The notes under the pieces: generated by a model
The model's input: the letters and a program-made list of their open reading frames with translations, nothing else
The model's database searches: none
What the model was told of the DNA's origin: nothing
Made by a program: the position numbers and the translations under genes
Assembly (NCBI GenBank): GCA_030680745.1
Contig: JAUXUR010000026.1
Span: 1,899 to 65,898 of the forward strand
Source: Alphaproteobacteria bacterium
Lineage (GTDB): Bacteria; Pseudomonadota; Alphaproteobacteria; JAUXUR01
Length of the DNA: 64,000 nucleotides
Reading direction: 5' to 3'
Part shown: positions 11,827 through 64,000 of the stretch, in pieces
Layout: the number at the start of each line of letters is the position of its first letter
Position numbering within the stretch: position 1 is the stretch's first letter

Positions 11827-11952
11827 GATCAAGTCGCGGGACGTAGGAAAGGGGTGGGGTTTATACTTATGGGTAATGATATAGCCGCGGGAAGTGAAGG
11901 AGTGCGATTTTTATCAGAATTTACTATTGCAAAAGATGTGTCTACAGATTAG

Positions 11953-28450: not shown

Positions 28451-28505
28451 AAAAAACTGAAGACGGGGTTGCTACGTTAGGTAGCAATACCATCTGTGCG
28501 CATTC

Positions 28506-28851: not shown

Positions 28852-28859
28852 GATTAGGT

Positions 28860-37670: not shown

Positions 37671-38481
37671 ATTAGGAATTATTGCCGGTGGTGGAAATCT
37701 ACCGAAAAAAATTATTCAAGCTTGTCAACAAACCAAACGCGATCATTTTGTGATTGGATTTGAAGGGATGACAGATCCTGATTGTGTTGAAAAGAGTCCT
37801 CATTATTGGTCTAGTCTTGGGCAAATTAACGCAACTTTAGAAAAATTTAAGGAAGAAAACGTTACTGAAGTTGTTTTTGCAGGTAGAATTGAAAGACCAT
37901 CTTTTAGTGCGCTTAAAATGGATAAGCGTGCAGCCTCTCTTCTTGCAAAAGCGGCTTTACGTGGTTTTGGTGATAATGCCGTTTTGACATTGATTATTGA
38001 AGAAATTGAAAAAGATGGCTTCAAGGTTGTTGCTGCACAAGATCTGTTAGATGATCTTTTGGCGCCAGAAGGTGCTTTGGGGCAAATTGAACCTGATGCG
38101 CAAGCCTTAAGCGATATTAAAAAGGGCCAAGAAATTTTAACGCAGATGTCCCCTATGGATATTGGTCAATCTGTTGTTGTTCAAGAAGGCATGGTTTTAG
38201 GCATTGAAGCCATTGAAGGTACGGATGCGTTAATTGATCGTTGTGCCAGTGTGAAACGCGATGGCGTTGAAGGCATTCTTGTGAAAATGCGTAAAGTTGG
38301 CCAAGATAATCGTGCGGATTTACCTACAATTGGACCTGAAACGCTGAAAAAAGCGAAAGCAGCGGGTCTTCGTGGTATTGCGATTGAAGCACGAGGTACA
38401 ATCATTATTAATAAAGATGAAGTGATTGATTACGCTAATAAATCCAATATGTTTGTTGTTGGGGTTAAAGCCGCATCGTGA
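37663..38481 (+). CDS. lpxI: UDP-2,3-diacylglucosamine pyrophosphatase LpxI (DUF1009)
   Basis: LGIIAGGGNLP N-terminus, ~270 aa, located between lpxA and lpxB as in alphaproteobacteria that lack lpxH. Confidence 0.85.
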   Translation: MSKLGIIAGGGNLPKKIIQACQQTKRDHFVIGFEGMTDPDCVEKSPHYWSSLGQINATLEKFKEENVTEVVFAGRIERPSFSALKMDKRAASLLAKAALRGFGDNAVLTLIIEEIEKDGFKVVAAQDLLDDLLAPEGALGQIEPDAQALSDIKKGQEILTQMSPMDIGQSVVVQEGMVLGIEAIEGTDALIDRCASVKRDGVEGILVKMRKVGQDNRADLPTIGPETLKKAKAAGLRGIAIEARGTIIINKDEVIDYANKSNMFVVGVKAAS

Positions 38482-39653
38482 AAAATGAAGTTAAATCTAT
38501 ATACGTTGTTGCGGGCGAAGCATCGGGAGATCTTTTAGGCGGTCGCTTACTTAAAGCTTTACATGAAAAATTGGATGGCCAAGTTCAGTTTTTTGGTGTC
38601 GGTGGCGAGACAATGCAAGAAGCTGGTCTTCAGTCTTTGTTTCCCATGACAGATTTATCCGTTATGGGTTTTACTGAAGTTCTGCCAAAATTGCCTTTAT
38701 TGATGCGACGTTTAAAAGAAACAGAACAACATATAAAAATTCAACGACCAGATGCTTTAATTACAATTGATGCGCCTGGTTTTAATTTTAGACTCGCTAA
38801 AAAACTTCAGAAACATCCTTTTCCGATCATTCATTATGTAGCGCCTTCTGTTTGGGCCTATCATAAAGAACGCGCTAAAAAATGTGCTGCTTTCTTAGAT
38901 CATTTGCTCACTCTTTTGCCTTTTGAGCCGCCTTATTTTACCGAGCATAATTTGTCGACGACTTTTGTAGGTCACTCTATTCTTGAGTCAGGTGCTGATC
39001 AAGCTGATGGTGAAAGATTTAGACAAAAATATAAGATTGATCCATCAATACCACTGATTGGTATATTGCCAGGTAGTCGGGTTATGGAAATCAATCGATT
39101 GGCGCCTATTTTTGCTAAAAGTTTTGAAAAATTATCCTATTTTTATCCGCAAGCAAAAGCAATTGTGCCTTGTTTGCCTCATTTGACACCCCAAATAAAA
39201 CAGATTTTTCGTCGTGAATTAGGGATGCTTTATGATCAGGTTGTTTTTGTTAAAGATGTTAGTCAAAAATATGACGCGATGGCGGCGTGTAATGTAGCCA
39301 TTGCAGCATCCGGAACAGTCACCTTAGAACTTGCGCTTGCAAAAGTACCAATGGTTGTTGCGTATCGTTTAAACCCTTTGACGGCAATGCTCGCAAAACG
39401 TGTATTAACGCTTGATTATGTTACGCTTGTTAATATTTTGCAAAATAAAGAGATTATTCCTGAATTTTTGCAGGAAAATTGTACCCCTGATAATATTGCG
39501 CTCTCTGTTGAGTCAATCCTTAAAAACCCTAAAAAAGCATTACAGCAACTTGAGCAAACAGAAATTTCTTTAAAAATGTTGCGCGCAGATGGTGCAAATC
39601 CAAGTGAAAAAGCGGCTGATGCAATCTTAGGTGTTCTAGGAAAAGTTTATTAA
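38478..39653 (+). CDS. lpxB: Lipid-A-disaccharide synthase
   Basis: IYVVAGEASGDLLGGRL N-terminus and GT19 layout. GTG start overlaps the lpxI stop (GTGA). Confidence 0.95.
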   Translation: MKNEVKSIYVVAGEASGDLLGGRLLKALHEKLDGQVQFFGVGGETMQEAGLQSLFPMTDLSVMGFTEVLPKLPLLMRRLKETEQHIKIQRPDALITIDAPGFNFRLAKKLQKHPFPIIHYVAPSVWAYHKERAKKCAAFLDHLLTLLPFEPPYFTEHNLSTTFVGHSILESGADQADGERFRQKYKIDPSIPLIGILPGSRVMEINRLAPIFAKSFEKLSYFYPQAKAIVPCLPHLTPQIKQIFRRELGMLYDQVVFVKDVSQKYDAMAACNVAIAASGTVTLELALAKVPMVVAYRLNPLTAMLAKRVLTLDYVTLVNILQNKEIIPEFLQENCTPDNIALSVESILKNPKKALQQLEQTEISLKMLRADGANPSEKAADAILGVLGKVY

Positions 39654-39713: not shown

Positions 39714-39836
39714 TATACCCAAACAATTTCAAAGTGTGGGTAGGAAAATGAGTAGTGAGACATGCGATGTGTATTCTTTATACATGAGCAATGCGAATCT
39801 CAAAATTTGACGACCTCCACAATTAGAAAGAGTTGG
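39714..39836 (+). repeat. ~123-bp palindromic-ended element, copy 1 (family also at 45312 and 50134)
   Basis: TATACCCAAACAATTTCAAAGTGTGGGTAGGAAAATGAGTAGTGAG...GCGAATCTCAAAATTTGACGACCTCCACAATTAGAAAGAG. It ends 8 nt before the ATG at 39841. Confidence 0.8.
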
Positions 39837-39840
39837 GTAT

Positions 39841-40665
39841 ATGCGTTGTACAACCTTTGCGACGGCAGATTCATACAAGATTAACGACTTATTAGCTTTC
39901 TTTGAATCTAAAGGCTTTAATCCTAAACATTATAACGGCGTTATTCACTTAAAATCGATTATGCCACCTAAGGATGATGAACAAGGCCCTAAATTAAAAG
40001 GCGATGCTTTTTTCTTTGTGTATGGTTGCGTTAATTTTTGGGGACTTACGCAAGAAGAAGAGAAGCATTTTATTAAGATGATCAAGCCATATGAGCTTGG
40101 ATCTTTACAAAATGCGATTCAAGATTATTCCACCTATTTAATGGGTCAAGAAACTGAAATTGACGAAGAAAACGATCGCATTGTTTTATCAAATAATGAT
40201 GATCTTATCAAATTATCGATTGCACATGCATTAACGCAATCGGTTAAACTTTCTTCTTTTGAAGTATTTGTTGATAAAACAATCGAAAGTATGGGCGATT
40301 TACCTACTGAGTTTTCAACTCAAGGTAAAATTTTACTTTCACGAAAAAAATTATCTCAAAAAATTGGCGCCTTATTTTCCGTCCGACATAAAATTAATCT
40401 TCATAGCGATATCCTTGATACGCCTGAATTTTTTTGGCGTCGCCCAAGATATGAGCCCTATTATCTGATGGCAGCAGATTATATGGACATTCAAACACGT
40501 ATTGAAATTTTGAATAAACGTTTAGATGTTATCAGAGAATTCTATGAAATTTTATCAACTGAATTAAATCACCATCATTCCGTACGACTTGAAATTGTCG
40601 TTATTATTTTGATTGCCATGGAAGTAGTTATTGGATTGTCGCATATATTCAATATTTGGAAGTAA
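39841..40665 (+). CDS. RMD1/DUF155 family protein with a C-terminal TM helix
   Basis: MRCTTFATADSYKINDL..., ...FFFVYGCVNFWG..., ...LSIAHALTQSVKLSSFE..., and a C-terminal IVVIILIAMEVVIGL match the DUF155 layout. Confidence 0.75.
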   Translation: MRCTTFATADSYKINDLLAFFESKGFNPKHYNGVIHLKSIMPPKDDEQGPKLKGDAFFFVYGCVNFWGLTQEEEKHFIKMIKPYELGSLQNAIQDYSTYLMGQETEIDEENDRIVLSNNDDLIKLSIAHALTQSVKLSSFEVFVDKTIESMGDLPTEFSTQGKILLSRKKLSQKIGALFSVRHKINLHSDILDTPEFFWRRPRYEPYYLMAADYMDIQTRIEILNKRLDVIREFYEILSTELNHHHSVRLEIVVIILIAMEVVIGLSHIFNIWK

Positions 40666-41200
40666 TCATATTATTCATAATATAGGACAAAAAATTAAAC
40701 TGGGATCATTTTTTCTCCGGTATTATGGTTTTGTTGTTTTTCTATAGGGTGATTATATTCTTTCTATGCTTTGAATGCACCCTTAATGTCTTTTATGGGA
40801 TGCCTAAGGAAGCAAATTGTTTAGCTTCTTTTTGAGATAAATTGCAAAGTAATTCATAGAAGTATAAGTAGTTAATTTTGTCTTTTGATAATCCAGAGAA
40901 TTCAGTTTTTTTCCTTCAAAACCATCATATTTGTCAAATATCTTTGAAATTATTTAACCGTACGAAGTAGGAAGTTTTATTTATGTGTTTTGAAATATTA
41001 ACCTCTTTGCTCGATGGTATTATTTTTTAAGAATGAACGTTTATTAAAGTAATAAATTAATATAAAGAAAAACAAATGTTATTTCGGTGCATTAATTTAA
41101 ACAAACAAACAAAAAATAAAAATGTTGCAAATTAAAAAAAATACTATACTATGAAAAATAATAGATTTGTATGTAATTAAACTTAAAAAGGAAATTTAAG

Positions 41201-44942: not shown

Positions 44943-45308
44943 ATGGAAGCGTTGTTAAAAGATTATCTGCCTATTCTCATGTTTTTAGGGGTTGCTTTGG
45001 GCCTTGCTTCTGTCCTTGTAATTGCATCTTATATTTTATCAAAACGTAAACCCGATGCTGAAAAATTATCTGCTTATGAATGTGGTTTTGCCCCTTTTGA
45101 AGATTCGCGAACACAATTTGATGTACGGTTTTATCTTGTTACCATCCTATTTATTATTTTTGATTTAGAGGTTGCTTTTCTGTTTCCCTGGGCTATTACC
45201 CTTAAAGAAACAGGCATTGTAGGATTTTTGGCAGCTTTTATATTTTTAGCTATTTTAACAATTGGCTTTGTCTATGAGTGGAAAAAAGGGGCTTTGGAAT
45301 GGGAATAA
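44943..45308 (+). CDS. nuoA: NADH-quinone oxidoreductase subunit A
   Basis: The 121-aa core [16 protein letters not shown]...YECGF.PF.....[22 protein letters not shown] matches NuoA. The upstream 40 codons of the tracked ORF were judged non-coding. Confidence 0.9.
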
Positions 45309-45311: not shown

Positions 45312-45434
45312 GTTACTCGAATTATTTCAAAATGTGGGTAGGAAAACGCGTGGTGAGCAAGCGGAATGTATTCTTCATACTTGAGCATTGCGAATCCCAA
45401 AGTCTGACGCCCTCCACAGTTTGAAAGAAGAAGA
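45312..45434 (+). repeat. ~123-bp palindromic-ended element, copy 2 (nuoA-nuoB spacer)
   Basis: GTTACTCGAATTATTTCAAAATGTGGGTAGGAAAACGCGTGGTGAG...GCGAATCCCAAAGTCTGACGCCCTCCACAGTTTGAAAGAAGAAGAG. It ends 4 nt before the nuoB ATG. Confidence 0.8.
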
Positions 45435-45438
45435 GTAA

Positions 45439-45975
45439 ATGAGCCAGATAATCGATTGGCCCGGTTTGCCACAAAACCAAGACCCATTGTTAAAACTTGC
45501 CACAGAGGAATTTAACAACCGGGGATATATACTTGCGCAAATGGATAAATTGACGGCCTGGGCAAGGTCTGGATCCTTATGGCCAATGACTTTTGGTCTG
45601 GCCTGTTGTGCTGTTGAAATGATGCAAACGGCCGCATCTCGATACGATTTGGATCGTTTTGGTGTGGTGTTTAGACCAAGCCCAAGGCAATCAGATGTCA
45701 TGATTGTAGCAGGAACCTTATGCAATAAAATGGCACCCGCTTTACGTAAGGTTTATGACCAAATGGCAGAACCTCGTTATGTGATTTCCATGGGATCTTG
45801 TGCCAATGGCGGTGGGTATTATCATTACTCATATTCTGTTGTGAGGGGCTGCGATCGCATTGTGCCTGTTGATGTTTATGTGCCTGGATGCCCGCCAACG
45901 GCTGAAGCGCTGTTATATGGTATTATGCAGCTTCAAAAGAAGATTCGTCGAACAACACGTTTTGCGCGGGGCTAG
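45439..45975 (+). CDS. nuoB: NADH-quinone oxidoreductase subunit B
   Basis: [27 protein letters not shown] and [11 protein letters not shown] (N2 cluster ligands). Confidence 0.95.
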
Positions 45976-45977
45976 GC

Positions 45978-46619
45978 ATGCAAACACAAGCAACAATCGC
46001 ACAATATATAGCAGATACGGTGCCCAAGCTTTTAGAGCGTGTTGAGATTACAAAGCATGCGATCATTTTATGGACGGATCATGCGCGACTTTTGAATTTA
46101 ATGTTATTTTTACGAGATGATGGATCTTGCGCTTTCAAGCAATTGGTAGAATTGACGAGTATTGATTATCCAGAAGAAGTGAATCGTTTTGAAATGGTTT
46201 ATCATTTGCTGAGTCTTCGTTTTAACATGCGTCTTGTTGTAAAATTAAAAACAAATGAAAGTCAGAATGTGCCGTCTGTAACATCGCTTTTTAGATGCGC
46301 TAATTGGATGGAGCGTGAAGCTTGGGATATGTTTGGCATTAAATTTGAAGGACACCCTGATTTGCGTCGACTTTTAACGGATTATGGTTTTGAAGGTCAT
46401 CCCTTGCGTAAAGATTTTCCGCTGACGGGCTTTGTTGAAATGCGTTATGACGATACTGAAAAACGGGTTGTGTATGAACCTGTGTCACTACGCCAAGATT
46501 TCCGTGTGTTTGATTTTGAAAGCCCTTGGGAGGGTATGGCGCATAATGTGTTGAAGAACGTGTTGCCAGGCGATGAAAAAGCGACTTATGATCTGCCATT
46601 AAAGAAGGAGTCTGCTTAA
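45978..46619 (+). CDS. nuoC: NADH-quinone oxidoreductase subunit C
   Basis: [23 protein letters not shown] and operon position. Confidence 0.95.
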
Positions 46620-47797
46620 TGCCAGATACGCAGATTAAAAATATCACCATTAATTTTGGACCACAACATCCGGCCGCCCATGGTGTGTTAAGGCTTGTAC
46701 TTGAAATGGATGGCGAAATTGTTGAACGTGCTGATCCGCATATCGGATTTTTGCATCGTGGGACTGAAAAATTAATCGAACATAAAAGCTATTTACAGGC
46801 TTTGCCTTATTTTGACAGGCTCGATTACGTGGCGCCGATGAGTCAGGAACATGCTTTTGCACTCGCTGTTGAAAAATTGTTAGGGATTGAGGCACCTATT
46901 CGCGCTCAATATATCCGTGTTCTTTTTGCAGAAATATCACGTATTTTGAATCATTTGCTTAATATTACGACTTTTGCGATTGATGTGGGTGCAATGACAC
47001 CTTTGTTATGGGCGTTTGAAGAACGTGAAAAACTAATGGAATTTTACGAGCGTGTTTCAGGGGCGCGTTTGCACGCGGCCTATATTAGACCAGGCGGTGT
47101 GCATCAAGATTTGCCCGATGGTTTAGTTGAAGATATTTATGCTTTTATGGAGCAATTTCCAAAGGTTTTAGGCGATATTGAAACATTGTTAAACGAGAAT
47201 CGTATTTTTAAGCAACGTACTGTCGATATTGGCATTGTAACCGCAGAAGATGCGTTGGATTGGGGTTTTACAGGTCCCATGTTGCGTGCGTCAGGTGTGC
47301 CGTGGGATTTGCGTAAAGCCCAGCCTTATGATGTGTACGCACAGATGGATTTTGATATTCCGATTGGCAAAACCAATGATTGTTATGCGCGGTATTTAGT
47401 CCGTGTTGAGGAAATGCGTCAAAGTTTACGTATTATGAAACAAGCCTTGGATCAAATGCCAAAGGGTCCTGTTAAAGTTGATAATCGCAAGATTTCAGAG
47501 CCACCTCGTGCCGAGATGAAACAGTCAATGGAAGCCTTGATTCATCATTTCAAATTATATACGGAAGGCTATCACGTGCCTAAAGGTGAAATTTATACAG
47601 CCGTAGAAGCACCAAAAGGTGAGTTCGGCGTGTATTTGATTTCAGATGACAGCAATAAACCGTATCGTTGTAAAATACGTGCGCCAAGTTATTTTGCCTT
47701 ACAAGCCTCTGAATTTATGGGAAAAGGTCATATGCTGGCAGATATGGTGGCAATTGTTGGGGCGATGGATATCGTTTTTGGGGAGATAGATAGATGA
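46619..47797 (+). CDS. nuoD: NADH-quinone oxidoreductase subunit D
   Basis: [16 protein letters not shown] and [13 protein letters not shown]-terminal [11 protein letters not shown] overlaps the nuoC stop. Confidence 0.95.
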
Positions 47798-48384
47798 ATA
47801 TTCATAAATCAGAAGAATTTTCATTTTCGCCTGAAAATTTGAAACGTGCTCAAGAAATTATGACGCATTACCCTGAAGGACGTCAGCAAAGTGCGTTGCT
47901 TCCTTTATTGGATATAGCGCAACGTCAAAATGGTGGTTGGCTCTCGCGTTATGCACTTGATTATTTAGCGCAATTTTTGGGTATTGCAGCGATTCGTGTT
48001 TACGAAGTTGCTAGTTTTTATTCTATGTTTAATTTGAAGCCTGTTGGTCAACATTTAGTGCAAGTTTGTACGACGACACCTTGCTGGTTGCGTGGTTCTG
48101 ACTCGATTATGGATACATGTAAGTCAAAACTCGGTATTGGTTTGGGCGAAACAACGGCGGATAAACAATTTACCCTTGTAGAAGTTGAGTGTTTGGGTGC
48201 TTGCGTGAACGCACCACTAGTGCAAATCAACGATGATTATTACGAAGATTTAAATGCCGATCAAATGGCTAAAATTATCGATGATCTTAAAGCCGGTAAG
48301 AAAATAGAAATTGGGTCGCAATTGGGACGCAAAGGATCGGCGCCAGAGGGTGGACCACAAGTGTTATGCGAGATAGTGAAATGA
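47794..48384 (+). CDS. nuoE: NADH-quinone oxidoreductase subunit E
   Basis: 2Fe-2S ligand pattern [11 protein letters not shown]...[10 protein letters not shown]. Start overlaps the nuoD stop. Confidence 0.95.
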
Positions 48385-48825
48385 TACATGAATTATTTCA
48401 TCATTATTGCGACGCAGCAACTTTCCTTTTTCGTCATTGCGAGGCACGAAGTGACGCGGCAATCTTTTTATCGTTGACATCGCGTGCCCCTTCTTATCCG
48501 TCATTGCGAGGGACGAAGTCCCGCGGCAATCTCTCTGCAACAATTAGATCGCCACACCCCCTGAAGGGGGTTCGCGATGACGATGTTGGTAGAGCGGGGG
48601 GTCGCGATGGCGATGTGAGACGGACTCGTCGTTGCGAGGCACAAAGTGCCGTGGCAATCGTTTCTCTCTCGTCATTTCGAGCCAATTACATTACCTCGTC
48701 ATTGCGAGGGACGAAGTCCCGTGGCAATCTAATGTACGCAAACGATCATTTAAGATTGCCACGCAGCTTCGCTGCTCGCAATGACGAAGTGGTCAGGATA
48801 AATCAACAAATAAACGGGCTATCCC
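48385..48825. repeat. Cluster of REP-like hairpin units (35-37 bp, CGTCATTGCGAGG-GAC-GAA-GTC-CCGCGGCAATC) in both orientations, filling the nuoE-nuoF spacer
   Basis: Plus-orientation units at 48431-48465, 48498-48533, 48625-48660 and 48694-48730. Inverted units at 48546-48582 and 48753-48789. Partial units at 48401-48421, 48597-48613 and 48668-48683. Confidence 0.85.
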
Positions 48826-50103
48826 ATGCTTCAAGATAAAGATCGTATTTTTCAAAATCTGTATGGTCTCCATGATTGGCGCATAAAAGCGGCTCAATCG
48901 CGTGGTGCTTGGGTAGGCACGAAAGATCTTATCCTTAAAGGTCGTGATTGGATCATTGATGAAATGAAAAAATCGGGTCTACGTGGTCGGGGTGGCGCTG
49001 GTTTTCCAACAGGCATGAAATGGTCTTTTATGCCCAAAACAGAAGGTCCTAAACCCCATTATCTGGTTGTAAATGCAGATGAAAGTGAGCCTGGCACGTG
49101 TAAAGATCGTGATATTTTACGTCATGATCCGCATTTATTACTCGAGGGCTGTCTTTTAGCGGGTTTTGCGATGGGGGCACACACAGCCTATATTTATATT
49201 CGTGGTGAATTTTATAACGAGGCGAGTAATGTAGCGCAAGCCATTCAAGAAGCTTATGCCAATAATATGATTGGTAAAAATGCGTGTGGTTCTGGCTGGG
49301 ATTTCGATATTCGTTTGCATCGCGGGGCAGGGGCTTATATTTGTGGTGAAGAAACAGCTTTGCTTGAAAGTCTGGAAGGTAATAAAGGCCAACCGCGCAT
49401 GAAACCCCCATTTCCAGCGGGTGTTGGGCTTTATGGTTGCCCTACAACGATTAATAATGTTGAAACAATTGCGTCCGCACCCGATATTTTAAAACGTGGT
49501 GGTGCGTGGTTTTCTTCTATGGGACGACCTAATAATGTGGGCACCAAGCTTTTTTGTATCTCGGGCCATGTGAACAAACCTTGTAATGTTGAAGAAGAAA
49601 TGGGGATTCCGTTGAAGGAGCTCATTGAAAAACATGCAGGTGGTGTGCGCGGTGGCTGGGATAATTTATTGGCTATTATTCCCGGTGGGTCATCTGTGCC
49701 GCTTTTGCCAAAATCAATTTGCGATACCGTTTTGATGGATTTTGATGCGTTACGTGAAGTCAAATCAGGCCTTGGGACAGCTGGCGTTATCGTCATGGAT
49801 AAATCAACTGATCTTATCAAAGCGATTGCGCGTCTGTCGAAATTTTACAAACATGAAAGCTGTGGACAATGTACGCCTTGCCGTGAAGGGACAGGCTGGA
49901 TGTGGCGTGTCATGGAACGGATGGTTAAAGGTAATGCCCGCCTTGAAGAAATTGATGAATTGTTAGAGGTCACAACGCAGGTTGAAGGACATACAATTTG
50001 TGCTTTGGGTGATGCGGCCGCATGGCCTATACAGGGTTTAATGCGTCACTTTAGATATGTGGTTGAGGATCGAATCAAAAATGCAGGCTCAAAAGCTGCT
50101 TGA
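48826..50103 (+). CDS. nuoF: NADH-quinone oxidoreductase subunit F
   Basis: [13 protein letters not shown] (FMN/NADH site) and [12 protein letters not shown] (N3 cluster). Confidence 0.95.
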
Positions 50104-50133
50104 AATCAATAGGGTAATGATATTTTTTGGTCA

Positions 50134-50257
50134 GTTACCCAAACTATTTCGAAGTGTGGGTAGGAAAATGAGTGGTGAGGCCAACGGAGTGTATTCTTCA
50201 ATCACGCGCATGGCGAATCCCGAATTTGACGACCTCCACAATTTGAAAGAGGAAGGG
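50134..50257 (+). repeat. ~123-bp palindromic-ended element, copy 3 (nuoF-nuoG spacer)
   Basis: GTTACCCAAACTATTTCGAAGTGTGGGTAGGAAAATGAGTGGTGAG...GCGAATCCCGAATTTGACGACCTCCACAATTTGAAAGAGGAAGGG. It ends 4 nt before the nuoG ATG. Confidence 0.8.
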
Positions 50258-50261
50258 TAAT

Positions 50262-52340
50262 ATGCCTAAATTAACGATTGATGGAACAGAGATTGAGGTC
50301 CAAGCTGGAACGACAGTTTTTCAGGCTTGCCAACAAGCAGGTGTTGAGGTACCTCATTTTTGTTTTCATGAGCGATTAGCGATTGCTGGTAATTGCCGTA
50401 TGTGTTTGGTGGAGCTTGAAAAAGCGCCGAAACCGATTGCTTCTTGTGCTTATCCCACGGCCGAGGGAATGGTTATTAAAACGAATACACCGATGGTTGA
50501 AAAAGCGCGTAAAGGCGTTATGGAATTTTTACTTATTAATCATCCACTTGATTGTCCAATTTGTGACCAAGGTGGCGAATGCGATTTGCAAGATGAAGCC
50601 ATGGCCTATGGTAAAGATCGCAGTCGCTACGAAGAAAACCGCCGTGCTGTGACTGACAAATATATGGGGCCACTCGTTAAAACAACGATGACGCGTTGCA
50701 TTCATTGCACACGTTGTGTGCGATTTATTACGGACGTTGCTGGTGTTGAAGAATTGGGTGCCACAGGTCGTGGCGAAAATATGGAAATCACCACTTATGT
50801 TGAAAAAGCATTAAGTTCAGAATTATCTGGTAATATCATTGATTTATGTCCCGTGGGTGCATTGACGTCTAAACCTTATGAATTTAAAGCTCGTTCTTGG
50901 GAACTTAAAAAGACTGAATCGATCGATGTTTTTGACGCGTTAGGCACTAATATTTGTATCAATACACGTGGGCCTGAAGTTATGCGCATTTTGCCGCGTT
51001 TGAATGAAGATATTAATGAAGAATGGATGGCTGATAAAGCCCGCTTCGCCTATGATGGTCTTAAAAGACAACGTTTGGATCGTCCTTATATCCGTCAAAA
51101 TGGTAAATTAAAAGAATGTTCGTGGGATGCGGCATTACAATTTGTTGCAACAAAAATTGAAACGGCAAAACCCAATGAAATGGCGGCCATTGCAGGCGAT
51201 TTATGCGATGTTGAATCCATGTTTGCGCTGAAAGAATTGATGCATGCGTTGGATGTTCAAAATCTTGATTGCCGTCAAGATGCAGCTTTTATTCCACATG
51301 ATACGCGTGCGCATTATTTATTTAATACCTCAATTGCTGGTATAGAAAAAGCTGATATCTGTTTGATTATAGGCGCGAATCTTCGTTGGGAAGCACCGTT
51401 ACTCAATGCGCGTTTACGCAAAACCTATCTTCAATCGAAATTAAAAGTTGGGATGATTGGTGAAGAACTCGATTTGACTTACCCTTATACCCAAATCGGC
51501 GCAGGGCCTGAAGCTATTGATGCATTGCTAAATAATACACATTCTTTTGCTGCATTATTAAAAAATGCGAAGAATCCAATGATTATTATCGGGTCGGCAT
51601 TGATGACGCGTGCTGATGCACCTGCTTTGTTCCAAAAAATTCAACAACTTATTGATACTTATGGGATTATTCGTGACGATTGGAATGGGTATAATCTGCT
51701 CCATAAAGCAGCGTCCCGCGTCGGTGGGTTAGATATTGGTTTTCTACCAACGAAGAGTGCAATGGGGACGGAGCAAATTATTGAGGCTGCTCAAAAAGGA
51801 AGTTTAAAACTTCTCTATTTACTGGGTGCTGATGAAATACGTGTGAAACCACACCCCAATTGTTGTGTTGTGTATCAAGGACATCATGGCGATATGGGTG
51901 CTCAAATCGCTGATGTTATTTTACCGGGTGCTGCTTATTCTGAAAAATCAGGAATGTATGTGAATATTGAAGGTCGTGCACAACGCGCTGAAATGGCGTT
52001 GTTTCCACCCCATTTGGCAAAAGAAGATTGGAAGATTATTAGGGCGATTTCAGGCGCGATCGGCAAAGCATTGCCTTATAATTCGCTTGAAGAATTGCGT
52101 TATGAATTGACTGAAAAATATCCACATTTTGGTCATATTGACCAGCTCGCTCAAAATAAATGGCAAAAAATTGACATTGCGTCATCGTCAAAAATTTCGG
52201 ATAAACCATTTTTGAATGTTATTCAAAATTATTATATGACTGATGTTATTTCGCGCGCATCCCTGACTATGGCGAAATGTACAAAAGATATTCTGAATAT
52301 TCAAGAACAACACGAAAATAAAAAGGTGGCCAATGCTTGA
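50262..52340 (+). CDS. nuoG: NADH-quinone oxidoreductase subunit G
   Basis: N-terminal 2Fe-2S/4Fe-4S Cys patterns ([37 protein letters not shown]). 692 aa. Confidence 0.95.
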
Positions 52341-53385: not shown

Positions 53386-53870
53386 AAAAATTGACGCGTA
53401 CACTTAAAAGTTTTTTGTTGGTTGAGCTCGCTTCAGGGCTTTGGCTGACACTGAAATATATGTTTAAGAAAAAAGTGACATTGAATTATCCTTTTGAAAA
53501 AGGACCCTTAAGCCCAAGATTTCGGGGTGAGCACGCATTAAGACGTTATGAAAATGGCGAGGAACGCTGTATTGCGTGTAAATTATGCGAAGCCGCCTGT
53601 CCCGCGCAAGCCATCACCATTGAAGCTGAAGCACGTGAAGATGGTAGCCGTCGTACAACGCGTTATGACATTGATATGACCAAATGTATTTATTGTGGCT
53701 ATTGCCAGGAAGCATGCCCCGTGGACGCCATTGTGCAAGGTCCTAATTTTGAATTTACAGTCGAAACGCGTGAAGAGCTTTTTTATGATAAGGATAAATT
53801 ACTCTCCAATGGTGATCGTTGGGAAGCTGAAATTCAACGTAATTTAGAGCAGGATGCGAAGTATAGGTAA
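53382..53870 (+). CDS. nuoI: NADH-quinone oxidoreductase subunit I
   Basis: Two CxxCxxCxxxCP ferredoxin motifs ([24 protein letters not shown]). ATGA overlap with nuoH. Confidence 0.95.
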
Positions 53871-53990
53871 TAAGCGTTGGCAATATACTGTATGCTTGCG
53901 TTATTCTAATTGTTTGTAACGTGAATTTGGAAATTTAAAAGCATCTACATTCAAGCACAACCATTTGAATTAAAAAGAAAAATAAAGAGG

Positions 53991-54281: not shown

Positions 54282-56051
54282 ATGAAACAAATTATTGTTA
54301 TGCTGTTTTTTCTTATCGCAGGATTAGAAATTAGAAATAACCAAGTCTATGCAGCAGGAAATGAACAAGAGTCAGCAATTGTTGCTATAAATGAAGACCC
54401 CCAATCTGAATTAGTAGTGGCAGAAAAAACCCCAATCGATAAACTTTCGAGTATTTTTCGTATATCACAAAATACGAGACCATTTTTAACACCCACTGTT
54501 TCCAAAGATGAAATCTTTGAAATTTATCATGCAATTGCTAATTCATTTCAATATTTAACAACAGAAGATAAACCCTGGGATATACCGATTCCCGAATTAT
54601 ATTATTTAGGTATAGAGCTTGTTTATACAATAACTGCAAAAGATTACCGTAAAAGAGAGGCAATTCAAAAAGCAAAAAATTTCTTGGAAACGGCAAAAAA
54701 TGGGAATTTAATTACCTATCGTTGGTTTTTGAAATTTTCAGGGCTTTGTGCAGCGATTGCGACCATAGGCCGTCAGAAGATCGATCTTGAATCTGATTCA
54801 AATAATATTTATTCATATCAACAAGCTTTGATGAATGTATTTGTCGCATCGAATTACGACCCACAAGCTTATTTTGATGCAATTGATACAATTGGATCAC
54901 CAATCACCCATGAAATTGGGTCGCTCAATGCGATGGCTGAACTTTTTCCTGAAATAGTGATTCTACCTTATCCTTTTGATTTAAGCGATACTGATATTTT
55001 TTTGAATTTTCCAGGTAAAACAAAACATGTATGGTTTGCAGGTGTTGCAAATAAAGAAACTACAGCAGATGGTCAGAGAAAGGATCCTCATGATTTTTTC
55101 TATCATGACATACTTCATTTAGCTATTATAAGACAAGCTTTATCAACAAATAATATTGCTTTTTTTTATGCGCAATATTTACAATATGTAAAAGATTTTT
55201 CTTACGATTATTTTGAAAAAAATCAGCAAGAACGTGTTCAACTTTTTTTTGAAGCGTTAGAATTGACCCAAAATTTTTTGGAGGAATTTCTTAAAGATCC
55301 TAATCAGGGCGAAGATACAAAAAGAATGTATAGTTTTTTTAGCTTTGCAATTTTTCATGAATTTTCTATGAGTTTAATTGGCCGATTGCATTTAATAATA
55401 AATCCTGATGCTCTTTTGAATATTTTTAAAATAGCTATTAATCCTATGCTTTCTTCTGATTATTATGGACCGCTTCTTCCTGAAAAAATTAAAACAGCGT
55501 TAAAATTAGAAATTTTTCAACCTGTTGAGACATTGGCTGTAAATTTTTTGAATGATCTGCTTTCTTATACTAATGCACATCATTTTAGTTTATTTGAGGA
55601 GCTTAAAAAATATACTAAAAGGTCGTTTTTACCATTTCCTTTAATCAATTATTATGCTGTAGAAAATTTTATTGTTTGGAATCCATCAATTTATTATACC
55701 GACTATTTTGAAAAAACTGTTAAAAAACATTGTCAAGAAAATAATATATCTATTGGTGAAATGGATGCATTTACTTTTTTTTATAATCGTTTAAGTGAGT
55801 TTGATTCTGGTAATAAAATTCCAAGGACGATGGCATTTTTTTACAATTTTAAAGGAAATCCTTTCAAATTAGATTGGGAGCCAATCATTTATTCAATGGA
55901 TGTTTTTATACATAAGGATTTATCTTTTACTAAATCAAAAGAAGAGATTGCTCAAAAGTTCAAAAATGATTTGCCAGCAAGACAAGATGGTCATCCATTG
56001 CCCGTTTTGCGTTATTATGGCGCTGATATGGAACCCGTTATTGTTGAGTAG
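54282..56051 (+). CDS. Hypothetical exported 589-aa protein (orphan cargo gene)
   Basis: Signal peptide MKQIIVMLFFLIAGLEIRNNQVYA, AT-rich, no family recognised. Contains a His/Asp-rich motif DPHDFFYHDILH. Confidence 0.7.
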   Translation: MKQIIVMLFFLIAGLEIRNNQVYAAGNEQESAIVAINEDPQSELVVAEKTPIDKLSSIFRISQNTRPFLTPTVSKDEIFEIYHAIANSFQYLTTEDKPWDIPIPELYYLGIELVYTITAKDYRKREAIQKAKNFLETAKNGNLITYRWFLKFSGLCAAIATIGRQKIDLESDSNNIYSYQQALMNVFVASNYDPQAYFDAIDTIGSPITHEIGSLNAMAELFPEIVILPYPFDLSDTDIFLNFPGKTKHVWFAGVANKETTADGQRKDPHDFFYHDILHLAIIRQALSTNNIAFFYAQYLQYVKDFSYDYFEKNQQERVQLFFEALELTQNFLEEFLKDPNQGEDTKRMYSFFSFAIFHEFSMSLIGRLHLIINPDALLNIFKIAINPMLSSDYYGPLLPEKIKTALKLEIFQPVETLAVNFLNDLLSYTNAHHFSLFEELKKYTKRSFLPFPLINYYAVENFIVWNPSIYYTDYFEKTVKKHCQENNISIGEMDAFTFFYNRLSEFDSGNKIPRTMAFFYNFKGNPFKLDWEPIIYSMDVFIHKDLSFTKSKEEIAQKFKNDLPARQDGHPLPVLRYYGADMEPVIVE

Positions 56052-56065: not shown

Positions 56066-56198
56066 GTGGTTCAACTTTAAATTCATTGTTGAAACACGTG
56101 AAGATCTTTTCTATGATAAGGATAAATTATTATCCAATGGCGATCGTTGGGAAGCTGAAATTCAACGTAATTTAGAACAAGATACTAAGTATAGTTAG
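56066..56198 (+). pseudogene. nuoI: Displaced copy of the last ~130 nt of nuoI (fragment 1)
   Basis: Aligns to 53739-53870. Translation ...[35 protein letters not shown] versus nuoI ...[35 protein letters not shown]. No 5' part and no start codon. Confidence 0.85.
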
Positions 56199-56302
56199 AT
56201 ATTTATTTAAATGTAGGGTATTTTTATTGACTTAATTTTAAATATAATATAAATTTCATTTTTCGTAAAGTATGTTTATGTAAACAAATATGGAGATTAA
56301 AA

Positions 56303-56690: not shown

Positions 56691-56941
56691 ATTGAAGCCG
56701 AAGCACGTGAAGACGTTTGTCATCGTACAACGTGTTATGGCATTGATATGACAAAATGTATTTATTGTAGCTATTGCCAAGAAGCTTGTTCCGTTGATGC
56801 CATTGTTGAAGGTCCAAATTTGAATTTATGCTTGAAACCCCCGAAGTGTTTTTTTATGATAAGCATAAATTATTATCCAATGGCGATCGCTGGGAAGCTG
56901 AAATTCACCATAATTTAGAACAGAATGCGAAGTATAAATAG
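56691..56941 (+). pseudogene. nuoI: Displaced, frameshifted copy of the last ~240 nt of nuoI (fragment 2)
   Basis: Aligns to 53629-53870. [43 protein letters not shown]..., then indels. The tail ...GDRWEAEI is recoverable only in another frame. Ends at TAG, as the parent ends at TAA. Confidence 0.85.
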
Positions 56942-57002
56942 TTCTTTTAAATTGTTGAATTTATGTCTAGAATAAAGTACTAAAATCTAAGGGTTGTAAA
57001 AA

Positions 57003-57316: not shown

Positions 57317-58183
57317 TTAATATATATTACAAATTTCGGTAAATTTTTTAAAATAAAGTGGATCGCAGTCATCTTCTAATGCCCAAGCCCAGGCTAAAAT
57401 TGCTTGAACAAAATTCCATTGGGCAATGCGTTGAGAAGGTGTTTTAAGAATATGTGCAAAAACCTGGATGCGTTTTTCAATAATTTCTTTGGCATTACGT
57501 ATCGTTAATAAATCAGGAATGGGGTTGCGGATAAAAGCTGCAATCTCGTATGCAGGGTCACCAATGATGCCTTTGGGATCAATTGCTATCCAATCATTGG
57601 AATGAGACAAAATATTATCATGGTGTAAATCACCATGAAGCAAAACGTTTTTGGGGGATGTTTCTAAAAGATGATTCTTTAAATCACGTGCTTTTTGTAA
57701 ATATTCGGAGGGGATATTGAGATCTTGATCTAAAAGAGCAAGCCAATCTGAAATATGTGGGAATTGATTTTCAATCGGCAAAGGCGCTTTGTGGAGTTTT
57801 GTGATTAGATCTGATGCAATATAAATAGCTTCTTCATCACGAAGATTAAAATAGTTTTTGAGTGATTGTCCAGGTATTGCACGTTCTATAAGTAAAGCAT
57901 CATCATTTTCGGCATAAAATTTAACACAAGAATGTCCGTTAAAAGCCCTAAGAGCATCTGCTTCTTTTCTTAAAGATTCAATATCAGGACTTACTTTTAA
58001 AACGACTGGTTTTGTATTTTGAACTGCCGAGAGGACATAATTGTAAGTGAGGTTTTCAAAGGGTTTAAGTTGCGTTAGGTGCCAATCTTTAGCATATTCT
58101 TGAATAAGCTTTGGTAAAGAATGAAGCCAGTTTTTACCTTTATCGCCATAAAGATTGATTATGTTTTGGTTGAAGTGTTGCAT
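57317..58183 (-). CDS. Aminoglycoside/hydroxyurea-resistance kinase family protein (APH(6)/StrB-like)
   Basis: Kinase-like catalytic loop LLHGDLHHDNIL, then IAIDPKGIIGDPAYEIA. Overall length and layout resemble StrB. Confidence 0.75.
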   Translation of the reverse strand: MQHFNQNIINLYGDKGKNWLHSLPKLIQEYAKDWHLTQLKPFENLTYNYVLSAVQNTKPVVLKVSPDIESLRKEADALRAFNGHSCVKFYAENDDALLIERAIPGQSLKNYFNLRDEEAIYIASDLITKLHKAPLPIENQFPHISDWLALLDQDLNIPSEYLQKARDLKNHLLETSPKNVLLHGDLHHDNILSHSNDWIAIDPKGIIGDPAYEIAAFIRNPIPDLLTIRNAKEIIEKRIQVFAHILKTPSQRIAQWNFVQAILAWAWALEDDCDPLYFKKFTEICNIY

Positions 58184-59308: not shown

Positions 59309-59489
59309 TTACTATGTTCCATTTGTTAACAATAATTTAATATCAGGAGTCTACACTTTTATAAAAAATATGCAATATGTGATTAAGCAGGCTATTGCTA
59401 TGTATTGATTTTGTTCTAAAAAATATTTAATATTGGTTAATCGTTTTCTCTTGTTTTAAAAGAATATATTTTTTTAATATTAAAAATGG

Positions 59490-59595
59490 TATAGTCGATA
59501 GACATTGGAAGTATACATCGTCACGCCTTATGCATGTATATACGTACACACTTCGCTTGTTGTTCCTTGTCTACTTCTCAAGTCTATCGACTATA
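59490..59595 (+). repeat. ~106-bp palindromic-ended element, copy 1 (upstream of the DUF2157 gene)
   Basis: TATAGTCGATAGAC...GTCTATCGACTATA perfect 14-bp terminal inverted repeats. Roughly 85-90% identical by eye to 61760-61865. Confidence 0.8.
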
Positions 59596-59635
59596 ATTTA
59601 ATATTGTTGATCTATTCATTCGTTGAGAGGCGAAA

Positions 59636-60664: not shown

Positions 60665-61871
60665 AATGAATGGGCAAGATTATTTAGATTATTTGCATGA
60701 TCGTCAATTGGTTGATGAACGTGCGTTAGGTACCATAAAAAAATACATGATTAATAATGCGAAGCAACCTGGGCTGCCATTTTATTTCCATCTTTTAGCC
60801 GGTGTTGGAACATTGATTTCGACATTTTGTCTTTACTCAGTTTTAAATCTTTTTGGATTTATAAGTTTTTTCAATACAGAAGGTTTTCTAGGTTGGGGGA
60901 TTTCTTTTATCGTTTTGGCTATATTGATTTATTTTCAATTTAAAAGCAATAAAAGCCTTGTACAGCAAAGTTTTTTGATTCAGTTTTCTTTTGCATTGAT
61001 GGTCGTCGGAAAAGTTTTTATTATAATTTACACCCTTTATAATCTTCAAAATTACTTTAAATTTCATAGTACTTGGGTCTATTCAGCAATTCTTTTTTTG
61101 TTGACGGGACTTACTTTTTTTCTTTACAAGGTAACAGCAGAACGCTTTTTGGGGTGTTTTTTTCTTTTTCTTTCCATTATTTACAATATTACTGAAACAC
61201 CATTTTTTCAGCCAGATAATAATCTTGTCTTAAATATTTACATGTTGCTGCAAGTTGTTTTGGCGAGTGTTTTATTTACACATTCGTTTGTCAAAAACGC
61301 TTTTATTACTATCGCTTATGCGCTTGTTTTGTCTGTTGCTGTGGAAATTGTTTTTTTTGATTTAACAATTGCCCCGTGGATTCTTGGTAGAGATTTTGGG
61401 TTAATATATGTGCAATATGGTTTTGCGCTTTTACTAATTTGGTCTATGTTTTGGGCATCTGGAGCACCTAATATCCGCGCATGTTTTAAAAACATCCATT
61501 TGATTTTGGCATCGTTACTTGTAGTTTTGTTGTCATATTTGACAGCACCCGGTATTATTTTTTCAATCTTTTTGATTGTTCTGGGATATGCATGTCAGCG
61601 GCGGTTTTTATGGTTATTGGGTGTATTTCTAATGCCAATTTACCTTTTCTTTTATTATTACGATTTGCAAGTTACCCTTCTTGAAAAATCAATTATTATG
61701 TTCTCGAGCGGCCTTATTCTTTTGATTGGTGCTGCATATATTCGTATTTGTAAATTAGATATAGCCAATAGTCATTGGAAGGATACATCGTCACGCCTTG
61801 CTCATGTAGACAAGAATACACTTCACTTGTTGTTCCTTGTCTACTTCTCAAGTCTATCGACTATAATATAA
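60654..61871 (+). CDS. DUF4401-type polytopic membrane protein (C-terminal 37 codons supplied by a repeat element)
   Basis: Overlaps the preceding gene by 11 nt. Multi-TM. Positioned between DUF2157 and GDYXXLXY genes as in the conserved trio. Confidence 0.65.
   Translation: MMHRMNGQDYLDYLHDRQLVDERALGTIKKYMINNAKQPGLPFYFHLLAGVGTLISTFCLYSVLNLFGFISFFNTEGFLGWGISFIVLAILIYFQFKSNKSLVQQSFLIQFSFALMVVGKVFIIIYTLYNLQNYFKFHSTWVYSAILFLLTGLTFFLYKVTAERFLGCFFLFLSIIYNITETPFFQPDNNLVLNIYMLLQVVLASVLFTHSFVKNAFITIAYALVLSVAVEIVFFDLTIAPWILGRDFGLIYVQYGFALLLIWSMFWASGAPNIRACFKNIHLILASLLVVLLSYLTAPGIIFSIFLIVLGYACQRRFLWLLGVFLMPIYLFFYYYDLQVTLLEKSIIMFSSGLILLIGAAYIRICKLDIANSHWKDTSSRLAHVDKNTLHLLFLVYFSSLSTII
61760..61865 (+). 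repeat. ~106-bp palindromic-ended element, copy 2 (inside the 3' end of the DUF4401 ORF)
   Basis: TATAGCCAATAGTCATTGGAAGGATACATCGTCACGCCTTG...CTTCTCAAGTCTATCGACTATA. The ORF stop at 61869-61871 lies 4 nt beyond the element. Confidence 0.8.
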
Positions 61872-62552: not shown

Positions 62553-63890
62553 CTAATTACCCCACTTTTGACCTTTAAAATCAAGATTTAATTGCGATTG
62601 CTTAATTATTAAATTGGGTCTATTTTCTTTTATTTTTTGTATGAAGATATCCGAGAGCATTTTATTATAAGTATTCAACTCTATGTAATTAAGCTGAGGC
62701 AGGTTATTTATAATTAATTCAGCGTCCTGATCTTTCATCTCATTACAAAGAATTGATAATTCCTGAAGATTATTCAATCCGTTAAAACAACGAATAAGCT
62801 CATTCCCATTAAAAAACCAAGTACCATTTTTACAAAAATTAATGCTTAGCTTTTTAAGATTCTTCAAATTAGAAATAGATTCTAATTTTTCAATCCCTTG
62901 AACTGCTTCTGAATCCCTAAAATCAACACGAGTACGAATCGTCAAATTCTCAAGATTGGTCATTCTTCCAATAATATTCAACGCATTATTTGAATATGAC
63001 TCAATATCTAAAAACCTTAGATTAGGCATTTTTGCAATGGTGTTAAGAAAAATATCGTTTGAAGTAAGTATTTTTAAAACAGTAAGTTTATGTTTATTCA
63101 AAAAATCTAAATCTATATTTTTAGAAACAATATTTTCAGAAAGATCCAAAGCAATAAGATTATTCATACAAAACAATCCTTGAATCTCTTCACTGCTGAT
63201 ATTCGTTTGGGAAAGATTCAATTTCATTAGTTTTGGCGCTTTATATATTTCCTTAAAACTATCAGGATCAAACTTCATTGAAATAAGGTTTAATGTCTCT
63301 AAATTTTGAAAACCAGCAATTTTTTTACAATCAATTGGTTTAAAAGCCATATTTTTAACCGAAAATGATTTTAAAGTGTGCTTCGATTTTACCAGCAATA
63401 GGCCCAACGCTTTTGAATGTATTGACTTAAAGCGCATCTGTTCAGGAATGTTATCATTTAAAACATATTTCACATGTGGAATTTCATATTTTTGAATAAT
63501 GGTACTTAAATATTCTACATTTGGTCCATTTTCATACTCAAACCATGAATGATGAAATGCTCTTTTAAAGGGATTGATTTTTTTTATTTGTACTATGTTT
63601 TCAGATTCGTCATCTAAAATCATATTATCTGAATTTTCAACAGGAACCTGCTGATCTTGTTGATTTAATTCTTCCCATCTTTCCATAAATTTGATATGGA
63701 CATTTTGAGGTAACGCCAAAATAACAGGTAACTGATCTTTAAACGGACTAATATCAAAATTTCTTAATCCTTCATCCGTGTATAAAGTTTCTATAACCTC
63801 TTCAATATAACCTGCTTTACAGGCACTTGTTATGACATTTGATACACCAAGCATCATACAAAAGATTATTATCTTCTTAAAATTCAACAT
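62553..63890 (-). CDS. Secreted leucine-rich repeat (LRR) protein
   Basis: Start moved to the ATG at 63890 (GGAGA RBS). Signal peptide MLNFKKIIIFCMMLGVSNVITSA. About 22-25-aa LRR units (LMKLNLSQTNISSEEIQGL, LIALDLSENIVS, LRFLDIES..., LENLTIRT..., LKKLSINF..., LQELSILCNEM...). Confidence 0.8.
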   Translation of the reverse strand: MLNFKKIIIFCMMLGVSNVITSACKAGYIEEVIETLYTDEGLRNFDISPFKDQLPVILALPQNVHIKFMERWEELNQQDQQVPVENSDNMILDDESENIVQIKKINPFKRAFHHSWFEYENGPNVEYLSTIIQKYEIPHVKYVLNDNIPEQMRFKSIHSKALGLLLVKSKHTLKSFSVKNMAFKPIDCKKIAGFQNLETLNLISMKFDPDSFKEIYKAPKLMKLNLSQTNISSEEIQGLFCMNNLIALDLSENIVSKNIDLDFLNKHKLTVLKILTSNDIFLNTIAKMPNLRFLDIESYSNNALNIIGRMTNLENLTIRTRVDFRDSEAVQGIEKLESISNLKNLKKLSINFCKNGTWFFNGNELIRCFNGLNNLQELSILCNEMKDQDAELIINNLPQLNYIELNTYNKMLSDIFIQKIKENRPNLIIKQSQLNLDFKGQKWGN

Positions 63891-64000
63891 ATTTTCTCCA
63901 ATTTTGAACAAGATTTGTATATTAAAAATATTTTAAAACTTCATTATTTTAATAAAAAAATTATAAAAATTTCAATACTATAATATACAATATCTAATAA

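Follow-up and report, generated by a model that had tools for sequence, protein, structure and literature searches.

The window analysed here is a 64,000-nt stretch of an alphaproteobacterial genome (assembly GCA_030680745.1, contig JAUXUR010000026.1, positions 1,899 to 65,898). It harbors three copies (c1, c2 and c3) of a palindromic repeat, two of them between genes of the respiratory complex I (nuo) operon and one upstream of a DUF155/RMND1-family gene. The repeat is probably a small non-coding mobile MITE (miniature inverted-repeat transposable element), a divergent relative of the enterobacterial repetitive intergenic consensus (ERIC, also intergenic repeat unit, IRU), residing in a Paracaedibacteraceae-like alphaproteobacterium, where its 3′ arm has been made into a ribosome-binding site (RBS). 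Judged from sequence, it is best described as a known architecture, that of ERIC, with two new traits: the alphaproteobacterial host and the abutment to start codons, which would turn the element into a leader and RBS. ERIC-type palindromic elements, so far those of enterobacteria and vibrios, would thereby be extended to an alphaproteobacterial lineage related to amoeba symbionts. The case is also a natural before-and-after experiment, in which a hairpin has come to lie between a gene and its RBS in the essential complex I operon and the downstream gene has apparently not been killed. The landing directly before ATG (the N-ATG junction) and the conservation of the nuoG copy bear on why ERIC-like sequences are conserved and on their role in mRNA. 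Finally, the element explains odd nuo spacers in this lineage, as well as metagenome contig breaks at these places.

Copies and boundaries

The three copies are co-oriented on the + strand, align over ~127 nt and share 78-81% pairwise identity (Table 1). Searches of the 64-kb window with nhmmer (--max) and a covariance model return exactly these three and nothing else above noise, and a 25-nt motif of the right arm occurs 3 times, as against 0 in 100 shuffles. An earlier note on this DNA, made from the letters alone, had placed three co-oriented copies at essentially these positions, which is borne out; its unit of ~123 bp is too short, the empty sites of relatives giving 126-127 bp. Comparison with those sites sets the true ends of the element as TTACYC...GRGTAA in c1 and c2 and (T)ATACCC...GGGTAT in c3, and the right end lies 0-1 nt from the ATG in all three copies. 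Statistics on orientation and placement rest on these n = 3 copies. The note had also held that the element fully accounts for the gaps that it occupies. This is true of the 130-nt gap between nuoA and nuoB, composed of a conserved 4-nt spacer (AAGG in the window) and 126 nt, but not of the 158-nt gap between nuoF and nuoG, where 31 nt of other sequence and 1 nt accompany the 126-nt element. Across 185,579 species-representative genomes, a pattern specific to the element has 1 match, the orthologous c2 in a related metagenome-assembled genome (MAG). The JGI metagenomes scanned with this pattern give 7 matches, all due to chance and confined to the pattern itself.

Empty sites and insertion history

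The nuo regions of relatives were retrieved via NuoD homologues. L009 ("MAG: Alphaproteobacteria bacterium", GCA_030696155.1) is the nearest public genome: its NuoD is essentially identical to that of the window (listed at 100%) and its nuo genes share 91-97% nucleotide identity. L010 is a Logan contig from SRR28640814 (~85-87% nucleotide identity), L011 has a NuoD of 85% identity, L014 stems from ERR2088991, and L012 comes from the same sample as L010. The spacer between nuoA and nuoB measures 4 nt in L009 (TAA-AAAA-ATG), L010 (TAA-GGAT-ATG) and L014 (TAA-CATC-ATG), and the window reads TAA-AAGG-(126 nt)-ATG. Between lpxB and the DUF155 gene, L012 has 60 nt, with AAGATAAG directly before the ATG (...GATAAG-ATG), and the window has 187 nt, reading ...AAGATAAT (TATACCC...GGGTAT) ATG. 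Filled minus empty site amounts to 126 nt for c1 and 127 nt for c3. By this comparison, c1 and c3 are recent insertions specific to the strain of the window, and both of these reconstructable events fall exactly at the N-ATG junction. By the same token, c2, which is offset by 1 nt, is an older copy common to the window, L009 and L010. Its orthologues occur in L001/L009 and in L010, where the contig stops inside the element; in L011, nuoF and nuoG overlap (TAATG) and there is no c2. The 31-nt spacer to the left of c2 is identical in L009 and 75% identical in L010.

The earlier note's description of an inserted element holds, two copies, c1 and c3, having reconstructable empty sites in relatives. 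Its attribution of the purine-rich tip to the element holds as well: the alternative of an ancestral flank was checked, and because the empty sites at nuoB and the DUF155 gene are without the tip, it must belong to the element. Young as they are, c1 and c3 differ by ~20% both from c2 and between themselves, and the copies from which they arose must be located beyond the window.

No direct target duplication is evident around the copies, as judged from the window and the empty sites of the relatives. The sequence AGGGTAAT, present both in the spacer between nuoF and c2 and at the right end of c2, was considered as an 8-bp target duplication and ruled out, since c1 and c3 have homologous right ends, which are missing from their empty sites. 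Copies c1 and c2 read TTAC...GTAA with flanks GG/AT and AG/TA, respectively, and a TA duplication at c1 is impossible because three relatives have 4-nt spacers without TA. Copy c3 reads TA-TACCC...GGGTA-TA, which fits a TA duplication only if one 1-nt indel is allowed. Scanning 40 ORFs (open reading frames) of the window gave no Y1/HUH transposase and no REP-associated tyrosine transposase (RAYT). A MITE of the window's own IS5-family element (transposase at 10744-11751) is ruled out by unrelated ends, and an integron attC site is excluded by reading, the ends not fitting RYYYAAC/GTTRRRY.

The hairpin, signals and coding capacity

For each copy, a single long hairpin with imperfect pairing is predicted to join the two ends (sense strand, -33.5 to -42.9 kcal/mol). 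The ends TTACCCAAAC.../...GGGTAA pair with each other, as the earlier note had proposed for its inverted repeats, but the imperfect palindrome spans the whole element and is not limited to the ends. Folding is 3-9 kcal/mol more favorable for the sense than for the antisense strand, a difference that implies G-U pairs in the former. Aligned together, the three paralogous and two orthologous copies have a consensus structure of 38 pairs with 95.7% of cells paired, and 7/38 pairs are changed on both sides, for example in the outermost stem, where CCC/GGG in c2 corresponds to CTC/GAG in c1. The observed paired fraction, double-change counts and covariation score are reached in 0/500 shuffles, and sliding the structure by 1-3 columns yields 0-2 double-change pairs. 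The hairpin is, on this modelled alignment, real and kept by compensatory changes, and the end-to-end RNA fold of the earlier note stands with it.

Promoter scans find no promoter-like site wholly within the element, in agreement with the note's remark that the TTGACG in the element has no usable -10 box, and a scan for intrinsic terminators (hairpin plus T-run) is likewise negative within it. A promoter or terminator cassette is ruled out by these scans. The one promoter-like match that touches the element (50243-50272) extends from the right arm of c2 into nuoG. When reading frames are compared, none is open in all copies, stops and frame shifts differing among them. A conserved leader peptide is rejected, as the mini-ORF of c2 (ATG 50170 to TAA 50258) is intact in L009 and frameshifted in L010, has ACG for ATG in c1 and encodes 20 aa in c3. 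In sequence terms, the element is small, non-coding and MITE-like, with terminal inverted repeats and filled/empty polymorphism.

Relation to ERIC and the Rfam family V_AS5

In Rfam 15, no family reaches the gathering score for the element, so that the comparison with Rfam raised by the earlier note gives no assignment; in the window only two tRNAs reach it. The best weak match of c2 and c3 is RF02818, V_AS5, over model positions 1-129 (full length), with 22.1 and 17.3 bits. A genuine ERIC copy of Escherichia coli was recovered for comparison with the two ERIC-PCR primer sequences, which match at 100% in 5,424 genomes. AS5 is a 133-nt RNA of Vibrio cholerae whose sequence is multi-copy in the genome (PMC2665243). 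Because the E. coli ERIC matches V_AS5 over the full length (46.9 bits, E 4.6e-9), V_AS5 is the Vibrio form of ERIC, and because this copy also scores below the gathering threshold, the model is narrow. In the reciprocal direction, a covariance model was made from the copies described here (R1); over 49 kb of E. coli it matches once, at the ERIC between ybhI and ybhJ and on one strand only (28.2 bits, E 1.6e-5). Global alignment to V_AS5 gives z values over shuffles of 3.4-5.8 in the forward and 0.5-2.0 in the reverse orientation. The homology comparison covered one ERIC copy and one consensus.

The likeness extends to individual blocks. The termini are alike, TATACTCTAAATAATTCGAGTTGCAGG in the E. 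coli ERIC and TATACCCAAACAATTTCAAAGTGTGGG in c3; an interior block is common to both (CAAGCGAGTGAATC in ERIC, CAAGCGGAATGTATTC in the element); and the 3′ end of the V_AS5 consensus, AGGAAGGG, is identical to the tip of c2. Since the Vibrio ERIC consensus has this purine-rich 3′ end too, the tip that resembles a Shine-Dalgarno (SD) sequence would be inherited family sequence and not an adaptation. A blastn search against E. coli genomes and plasmids returns no homologues of the element. Sequence comparison thus suggests a divergent ERIC-like MITE, a supported resemblance in which family membership is not demonstrated. The earlier note had preferred a leader cassette over a neutral MITE; this preference is not supported, the element being MITE-like and akin to ERIC in length, architecture and termini.

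Comparison with known repeat systems

ERIC is the closest system in both architecture and sequence, so far as the sequences compared can tell. Like ERIC, the element (126-127 bp) is a full-length imperfect palindrome forming a single long hairpin, it is intergenic, lies inside transcription units near ORF boundaries, and has filled and empty sites between close relatives; to this are added the weak reciprocal covariance-model matches, specific to one orientation. Unlike ERIC, known from Enterobacteriaceae and Vibrionaceae, it resides in an alphaproteobacterium, is present in very few copies (the entire related MAG has one pattern match), shows no evident TA duplication, and scores below the curated threshold, c1 having no match. 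ERICs reportedly adjoin or overlap stop codons in most cases, and in the E. coli copy the distance to the ybhI stop is 1-2 nt, whereas the present copies abut start codons. ERIC itself is 127 bp long with terminal inverted repeats and TA at the termini, and it is co-transcribed and exposes an RNase E site depending on its orientation (PMC2229807, PMC3184786, PMC10969869). Filled and empty sites between close relatives are reported for Yersinia ERICs in the work of De Gregorio (2005), as referred to in PMC2229807 and PMC3184786.

As a dispersed repeat providing signals for translation initiation, a trait also of Borrelia IR sequences, the closest precedent is REP2 of Neisseria, a 120-150-bp repeat with stem-loops directly upstream of ORFs, to which it supplies the RBS (PMC3184786, section 11). 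REP2, however, has a promoter and its own ATG, lacks terminal inverted repeats and is not known as a mobile hairpin; the element described here ends in inverted repeats and is without a promoter, and the ATG, being present in the empty sites, is that of the target. The Correia elements of Neisseria (NEMIS) are MITEs of comparable size (100-155 bp), often just upstream of genes and co-transcribed, with mRNA hairpins processed by ribonuclease (PMC10969869). They differ in carrying promoters and an integration host factor (IHF) site, in duplicating TA and in being cut by RNase III, and no sequence similarity to them is seen. Rickettsia palindromic elements (RPE), which the earlier note had also brought up, are palindromic repeats of ~100-150 bp in an intracellular alphaproteobacterium, inserted in frame inside genes and encoding a conserved peptide (PMC10969869). 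The present element is not an RPE, all its copies being intergenic and without a conserved frame.

The ribosome-binding region of nuoB, nuoG and the DUF155 gene

Since all sequence within ~126 nt upstream of the three ATGs is element-derived, the ribosome-binding region is supplied by the element. The native context that has been displaced is stop-start coupling for nuoB and the weak AAGATAAG for the DUF155 gene. SD strength was expressed as the predicted pairing energy to an assumed canonical anti-SD, ACCUCCUUA. On this scale the SD of c2 (-8.7 kcal/mol) is among the strongest in the window (median -5.4), and that of c3 is average (-4.6; -1.5 in the empty site of L012). With the element inverted, the predicted values would be -3.7 (c2), -3.7 (c3) and -2.5 (c1) kcal/mol. 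Selection for SD supply alone cannot explain orientation and placement, because the tip of c1 is poor and only c2 gains. The claim that the element supplies the Shine-Dalgarno therefore stands for the position of the RBS region, and a strong SD sequence is confined to c2. The predicted energy to open positions -18 to +10 is 10.7 kcal/mol for c1, 9.6 for c2 and 16.4 for c3, compared with a median of 6.0 for 23 other genes of the window and 5.7-8.8 for the empty nuoB and DUF155 sites. According to these models the element probably both supplies the RBS and damps it. The tip looks like an existing sequence that has been reused and not like a dedicated translation cassette, so that the portable translation-initiation cassette of the earlier note survives in its element-derived RBS region, with a tip that is inherited ERIC-type sequence.

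The element lands as a block of 126-127 nt exactly at the 5′ edge of a start codon, in sense orientation and with no target duplication in evidence. For what follows, this course of events is proposed. It would be co-transcribed with its neighbors, as is implied by its location within the nuo operon or between the co-directional lpxB and DUF155 genes and by its having neither promoter nor terminator. The insertion would push the native Shine-Dalgarno or stop-start coupling ~126 nt away, and the downstream gene must then initiate on the purine-rich 3′ arm, which would lie at the hairpin base and fall in part within a conserved internal loop. Insertions may persist only where this arm can act as a ribosome-binding region, and the hairpin probably damps or couples initiation. 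At c1 the nuoA stop precedes the hairpin base by 4 nt, and a ribosome that finishes translation there could melt this base and expose the tip. A further role, suggested by the analogy to ERIC, may be that of a site for processing by RNase E or for stability; a protein of the RNase E/G family is encoded in the window. Whether the placement at start codons reflects target choice or selection is not settled.

Weighing the alternatives

Several observations weigh against a reused ERIC relative. The V_AS5 scores lie far below the gathering score of 96 bits, c1 gives no V_AS5 match at E<=10, and any covariance-model score is in part that of a generic hairpin of the right length. The copies do not show the TA duplication that ERIC is reported to have, and the window contains no cognate transposase, its sole transposase being of the IS5 family with unrelated ends. 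As to translation, the SD of c1 is weak (-2.4 kcal/mol, compared with -4.2 to -6.0 at empty nuoB sites), and a clear SD gain from orientation is found only in c2. Lastly, conservation of c2 beyond that of fourfold-degenerate sites is unexpected for a decaying selfish insertion. This copy is 98.3% identical (116/118) between L009 (8332-8457) and L010 (13487-13603), with a private 1-nt deletion in L010, whereas for the same two contigs identity is 51-53% at fourfold-degenerate sites of nuoD and nuoF, which flank it, and 75% over the 32 nt to the left of c2. Such a pattern points to constraint, to a conserved master from which the copy is repeatedly converted or re-inserted, or to an artefact of assembly.

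Constraint would be expected of a domesticated leader or regulatory cassette, whose hairpin conditionally sequesters the RBS or sets subunit stoichiometry by processing and which spreads by virtue of regulated initiation. In addition to the identity of c2, the 158-nt spacer between nuoF and nuoG, which shows 7 differences between the window and L009 at a fourfold divergence of 24-30%, speaks for such a cassette, as do the compensatory pairs, the high opening energies, the better folding of the sense strand and the strong SD in c2. The balance is nevertheless unfavorable, and this account appears unlikely. Copies c1 and c3 are young, strain-specific and ~20% divergent, with weak or average SDs, and so resemble fresh insertions more than selected regulators; the three genes served have no regulatory logic in common; and the tip motif is also present in the Vibrio ERIC. 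Furthermore, 98% identity in loops as well as stems exceeds what a constraint on structure only would require, and it could stem from gene conversion, re-insertion or bubble popping in the Logan assembly. The earlier note's argument that strict orientation betrays selection is not supported, resting as it does on three copies.

Orientation and abutment to ATG could instead be mechanical consequences of integration, and not products of selection, if insertion were directed to start codons, strand-specific and free of duplication, for example by an HUH/Y1-type enzyme or by a site-specific recombinase reading 5′-CAT-3′ on the complementary strand. Single-strand transposases typically act on hairpins of this covariation-conserved kind. 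Two independent insertions lie exactly at N-ATG, with spacers equal to those of the relatives (4 nt and 60 nt) and without duplication; the third copy is 1 nt off the ATG; and all three have the same orientation to the ATG, even though c2 alone gains in SD. Nonetheless, directed integration is regarded as doubtful: the window has yielded no enzyme of this type, c2 stands 1 nt away from its ATG, n = 3 sites, ERIC relatives are reported to duplicate TA (PMC2229807 Table 1), and c3 is compatible with a TA duplication overlapping the A of the ATG, given one 1-nt indel. A combined account, in which a mobile hairpin integrates strand-specifically at the 5′ edge of ATG without duplication and the nuoG copy has been domesticated and kept at ~98% identity between species that are close to saturation at synonymous sites, is equally doubtful. 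If true, a mobile 5′ leader with start-codon targeting would rewire translation initiation wherever it inserts; such targeting is not described for ERIC or other bacterial MITEs in the reviews consulted.

A neutral MITE that inserts at random into tolerated intergenic TA-rich positions, its co-orientation next to ATG being a small-sample accident, is very improbable. There are three copies only, the spacer between nuoA and nuoB offers 5 possible junctions, and the prior for co-orientation of three copies is 1 in 4. On the other hand, insertion was exactly at the ATG despite the 60-nt spacer between lpxB and the DUF155 gene, two independent exact N-ATG insertions together with 3/3 in sense orientation are unlikely if random (rough estimate below 1e-3, n = 3), and c2 is conserved. 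An immobile ancestral leader, precisely deleted in the relatives, can practically be dismissed, since beyond its formal possibility nothing is in its favor and it needs precise loss between nuoA and nuoB in three contigs, including that of the closest relative L009, each leaving 4 nt, as well as precise loss between lpxB and the DUF155 gene in L012.

Genome context and other repeats

The coordinates of the copies and of the adjoining genes are collected in Table 1.

Table 1. Copies of the repeat, their right tips and the features next to them (positions in the window).
Feature	Position	Strand	Remarks
c1	45313-45438	+	126 nt, TTACTC...GAGTAA; between nuoA and nuoB, nuoB ATG at 45439
c2	50135-50260	+	126 nt, TTACCC...GGGTAA; 1 nt before nuoG ATG (50262)
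c3	39714-39840	+	126-127 nt, (T)ATACCC...GGGTAT; abuts DUF155/RMND1-family ATG (39841), 60 nt past lpxB
c1 right tip	45423-45438	+	GAAAGAAGAAGAGTAA; fills region upstream of nuoB start
c2 right tip	50245-50260	+	GAAAGAGGAAGGGTAA; holds strong SD-like GAGGAAGGG
c3 right tip	39826-39840	+	GAAAGAGTTGGGTAT
nuoF-to-c2 spacer	50104-50134	+	31 nt, outside the repeat; contains AGGGTAAT
lpxB	38478-39653	+	co-directional neighbor upstream of c3
DUF155/RMND1-family gene	39841-40665	+	start codon adjoins c3
nuoA	44943-45308	+	ORF open from GTG 44823; 121-aa call in relatives puts likely start near 44943
nuoA stop	45306-45308	+	4 nt (AAGG) before c1
nuoB	45439-45975	+	178 aa, start codon adjoins c1
nuoF	48826-50103	+	425 aa, upstream of c2
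nuoG	50262-52340	+	692 aa, start 1 nt after c2

The window has a G+C content of 35.5%. Its genes are arranged as lpxD-fabZ-lpxA-lpxI-lpxB, the DUF155/RMND1-family gene, a 723-aa ORF, a tRNA, a GNAT gene and then the nuo cluster, in the order nuoA-B-C-D-E, an ORF made of repeats, and nuoF-G-H-I; the cluster is interrupted after nuoI, and nuoJ-N are not in the window. A more distant homologue of the DUF155 protein is labelled Candidatus Paracaedibacteraceae. Upstream of nuoA, the L009 MAG differs in synteny from the window.

The earlier note's picture of an otherwise overlapping operon is partly true, the exceptions being the interruption after nuoI and the gap between nuoE and nuoF (48385-48825), which is filled by another repeat family. 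This gap holds 5 copies of a GC-rich ~40-nt palindromic repeat (CGTCATTGCGAGG..CGAAGT..CGCGGCAATCT), which form a 157-aa ORF (48366-48839) whose ends overlap nuoE and nuoF; the open frame is kept, with overlapping stops and starts. L009 has three or four such repeats by eye in a 273-nt gap (6750-7022) with no gene called, L010 has a 143-aa ORF (11760-12191), and L011 has none. Copy number thus differs between strains, which indicates that a second repeat family has invaded the nuo operon. Identity at fourfold sites between window 46619-52340 and L009 4984-10537 is 89.5% for nuoD, 75.6% for nuoF and 70.1% for nuoG; this uneven synonymous divergence along the operon suggests recombination between strains.

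Downstream, the 3′ end of nuoI is partly duplicated twice (53619-53876, 56068-56204, 56691-56947; 80-85% identity), around a 589-aa ORF without a Pfam match (54282-56051) that interrupts the nuo operon after nuoI, and L009 similarly has a 591-aa ORF there. A gene for a phosphotransferase resembling APH(6)/hydroxyurea kinase (57317-58183, - strand) stands beside the disrupted nuo end and is also found in L009. Leucine-rich-repeat proteins flank the nuo region in both the window (62553-63911, - strand) and L009 (1-2976, - strand). From their sequences, the leucine-rich-repeat, Sel1/TPR-repeat and patatin-like genes would fit a host-associated lifestyle.

Further repeats are scattered over the window. 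The IS5-family insertion sequence (IS) occupies 10284-11969, with a transposase (10744-11751) matching DDE_Tnp_1_5 and DDE_Tnp_1 and with inverted ends of ~68 bp. It is apparently inserted into a ~200-nt palindromic repeat (CACCTCTCCCCTTGTGGGAGAGGTCG...), of which a second copy lies inverted at 28637-28838; near-identical IS5 transposases occur elsewhere only on contigs of about 1-4 kb. A MITE-like element of ~350 bp (28504-28853) has 47-nt inverted ends (TCAATCTATGGGACAAAAAATGAAATT...), and its terminal motif recurs at 10083-10123 and at 40673-40713, the latter just past the stop of the DUF155 gene. A 54-nt unit repeated five times in tandem (28166-28489; 63-91% identity) overlaps an ORF at 28043-28450 that has no Pfam match. 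Lastly, a 136-nt direct repeat (82% identity) is located just upstream of a DUF2157 gene (59466-59601) and at the 3′ end of a DUF4401 gene (61736-61871).

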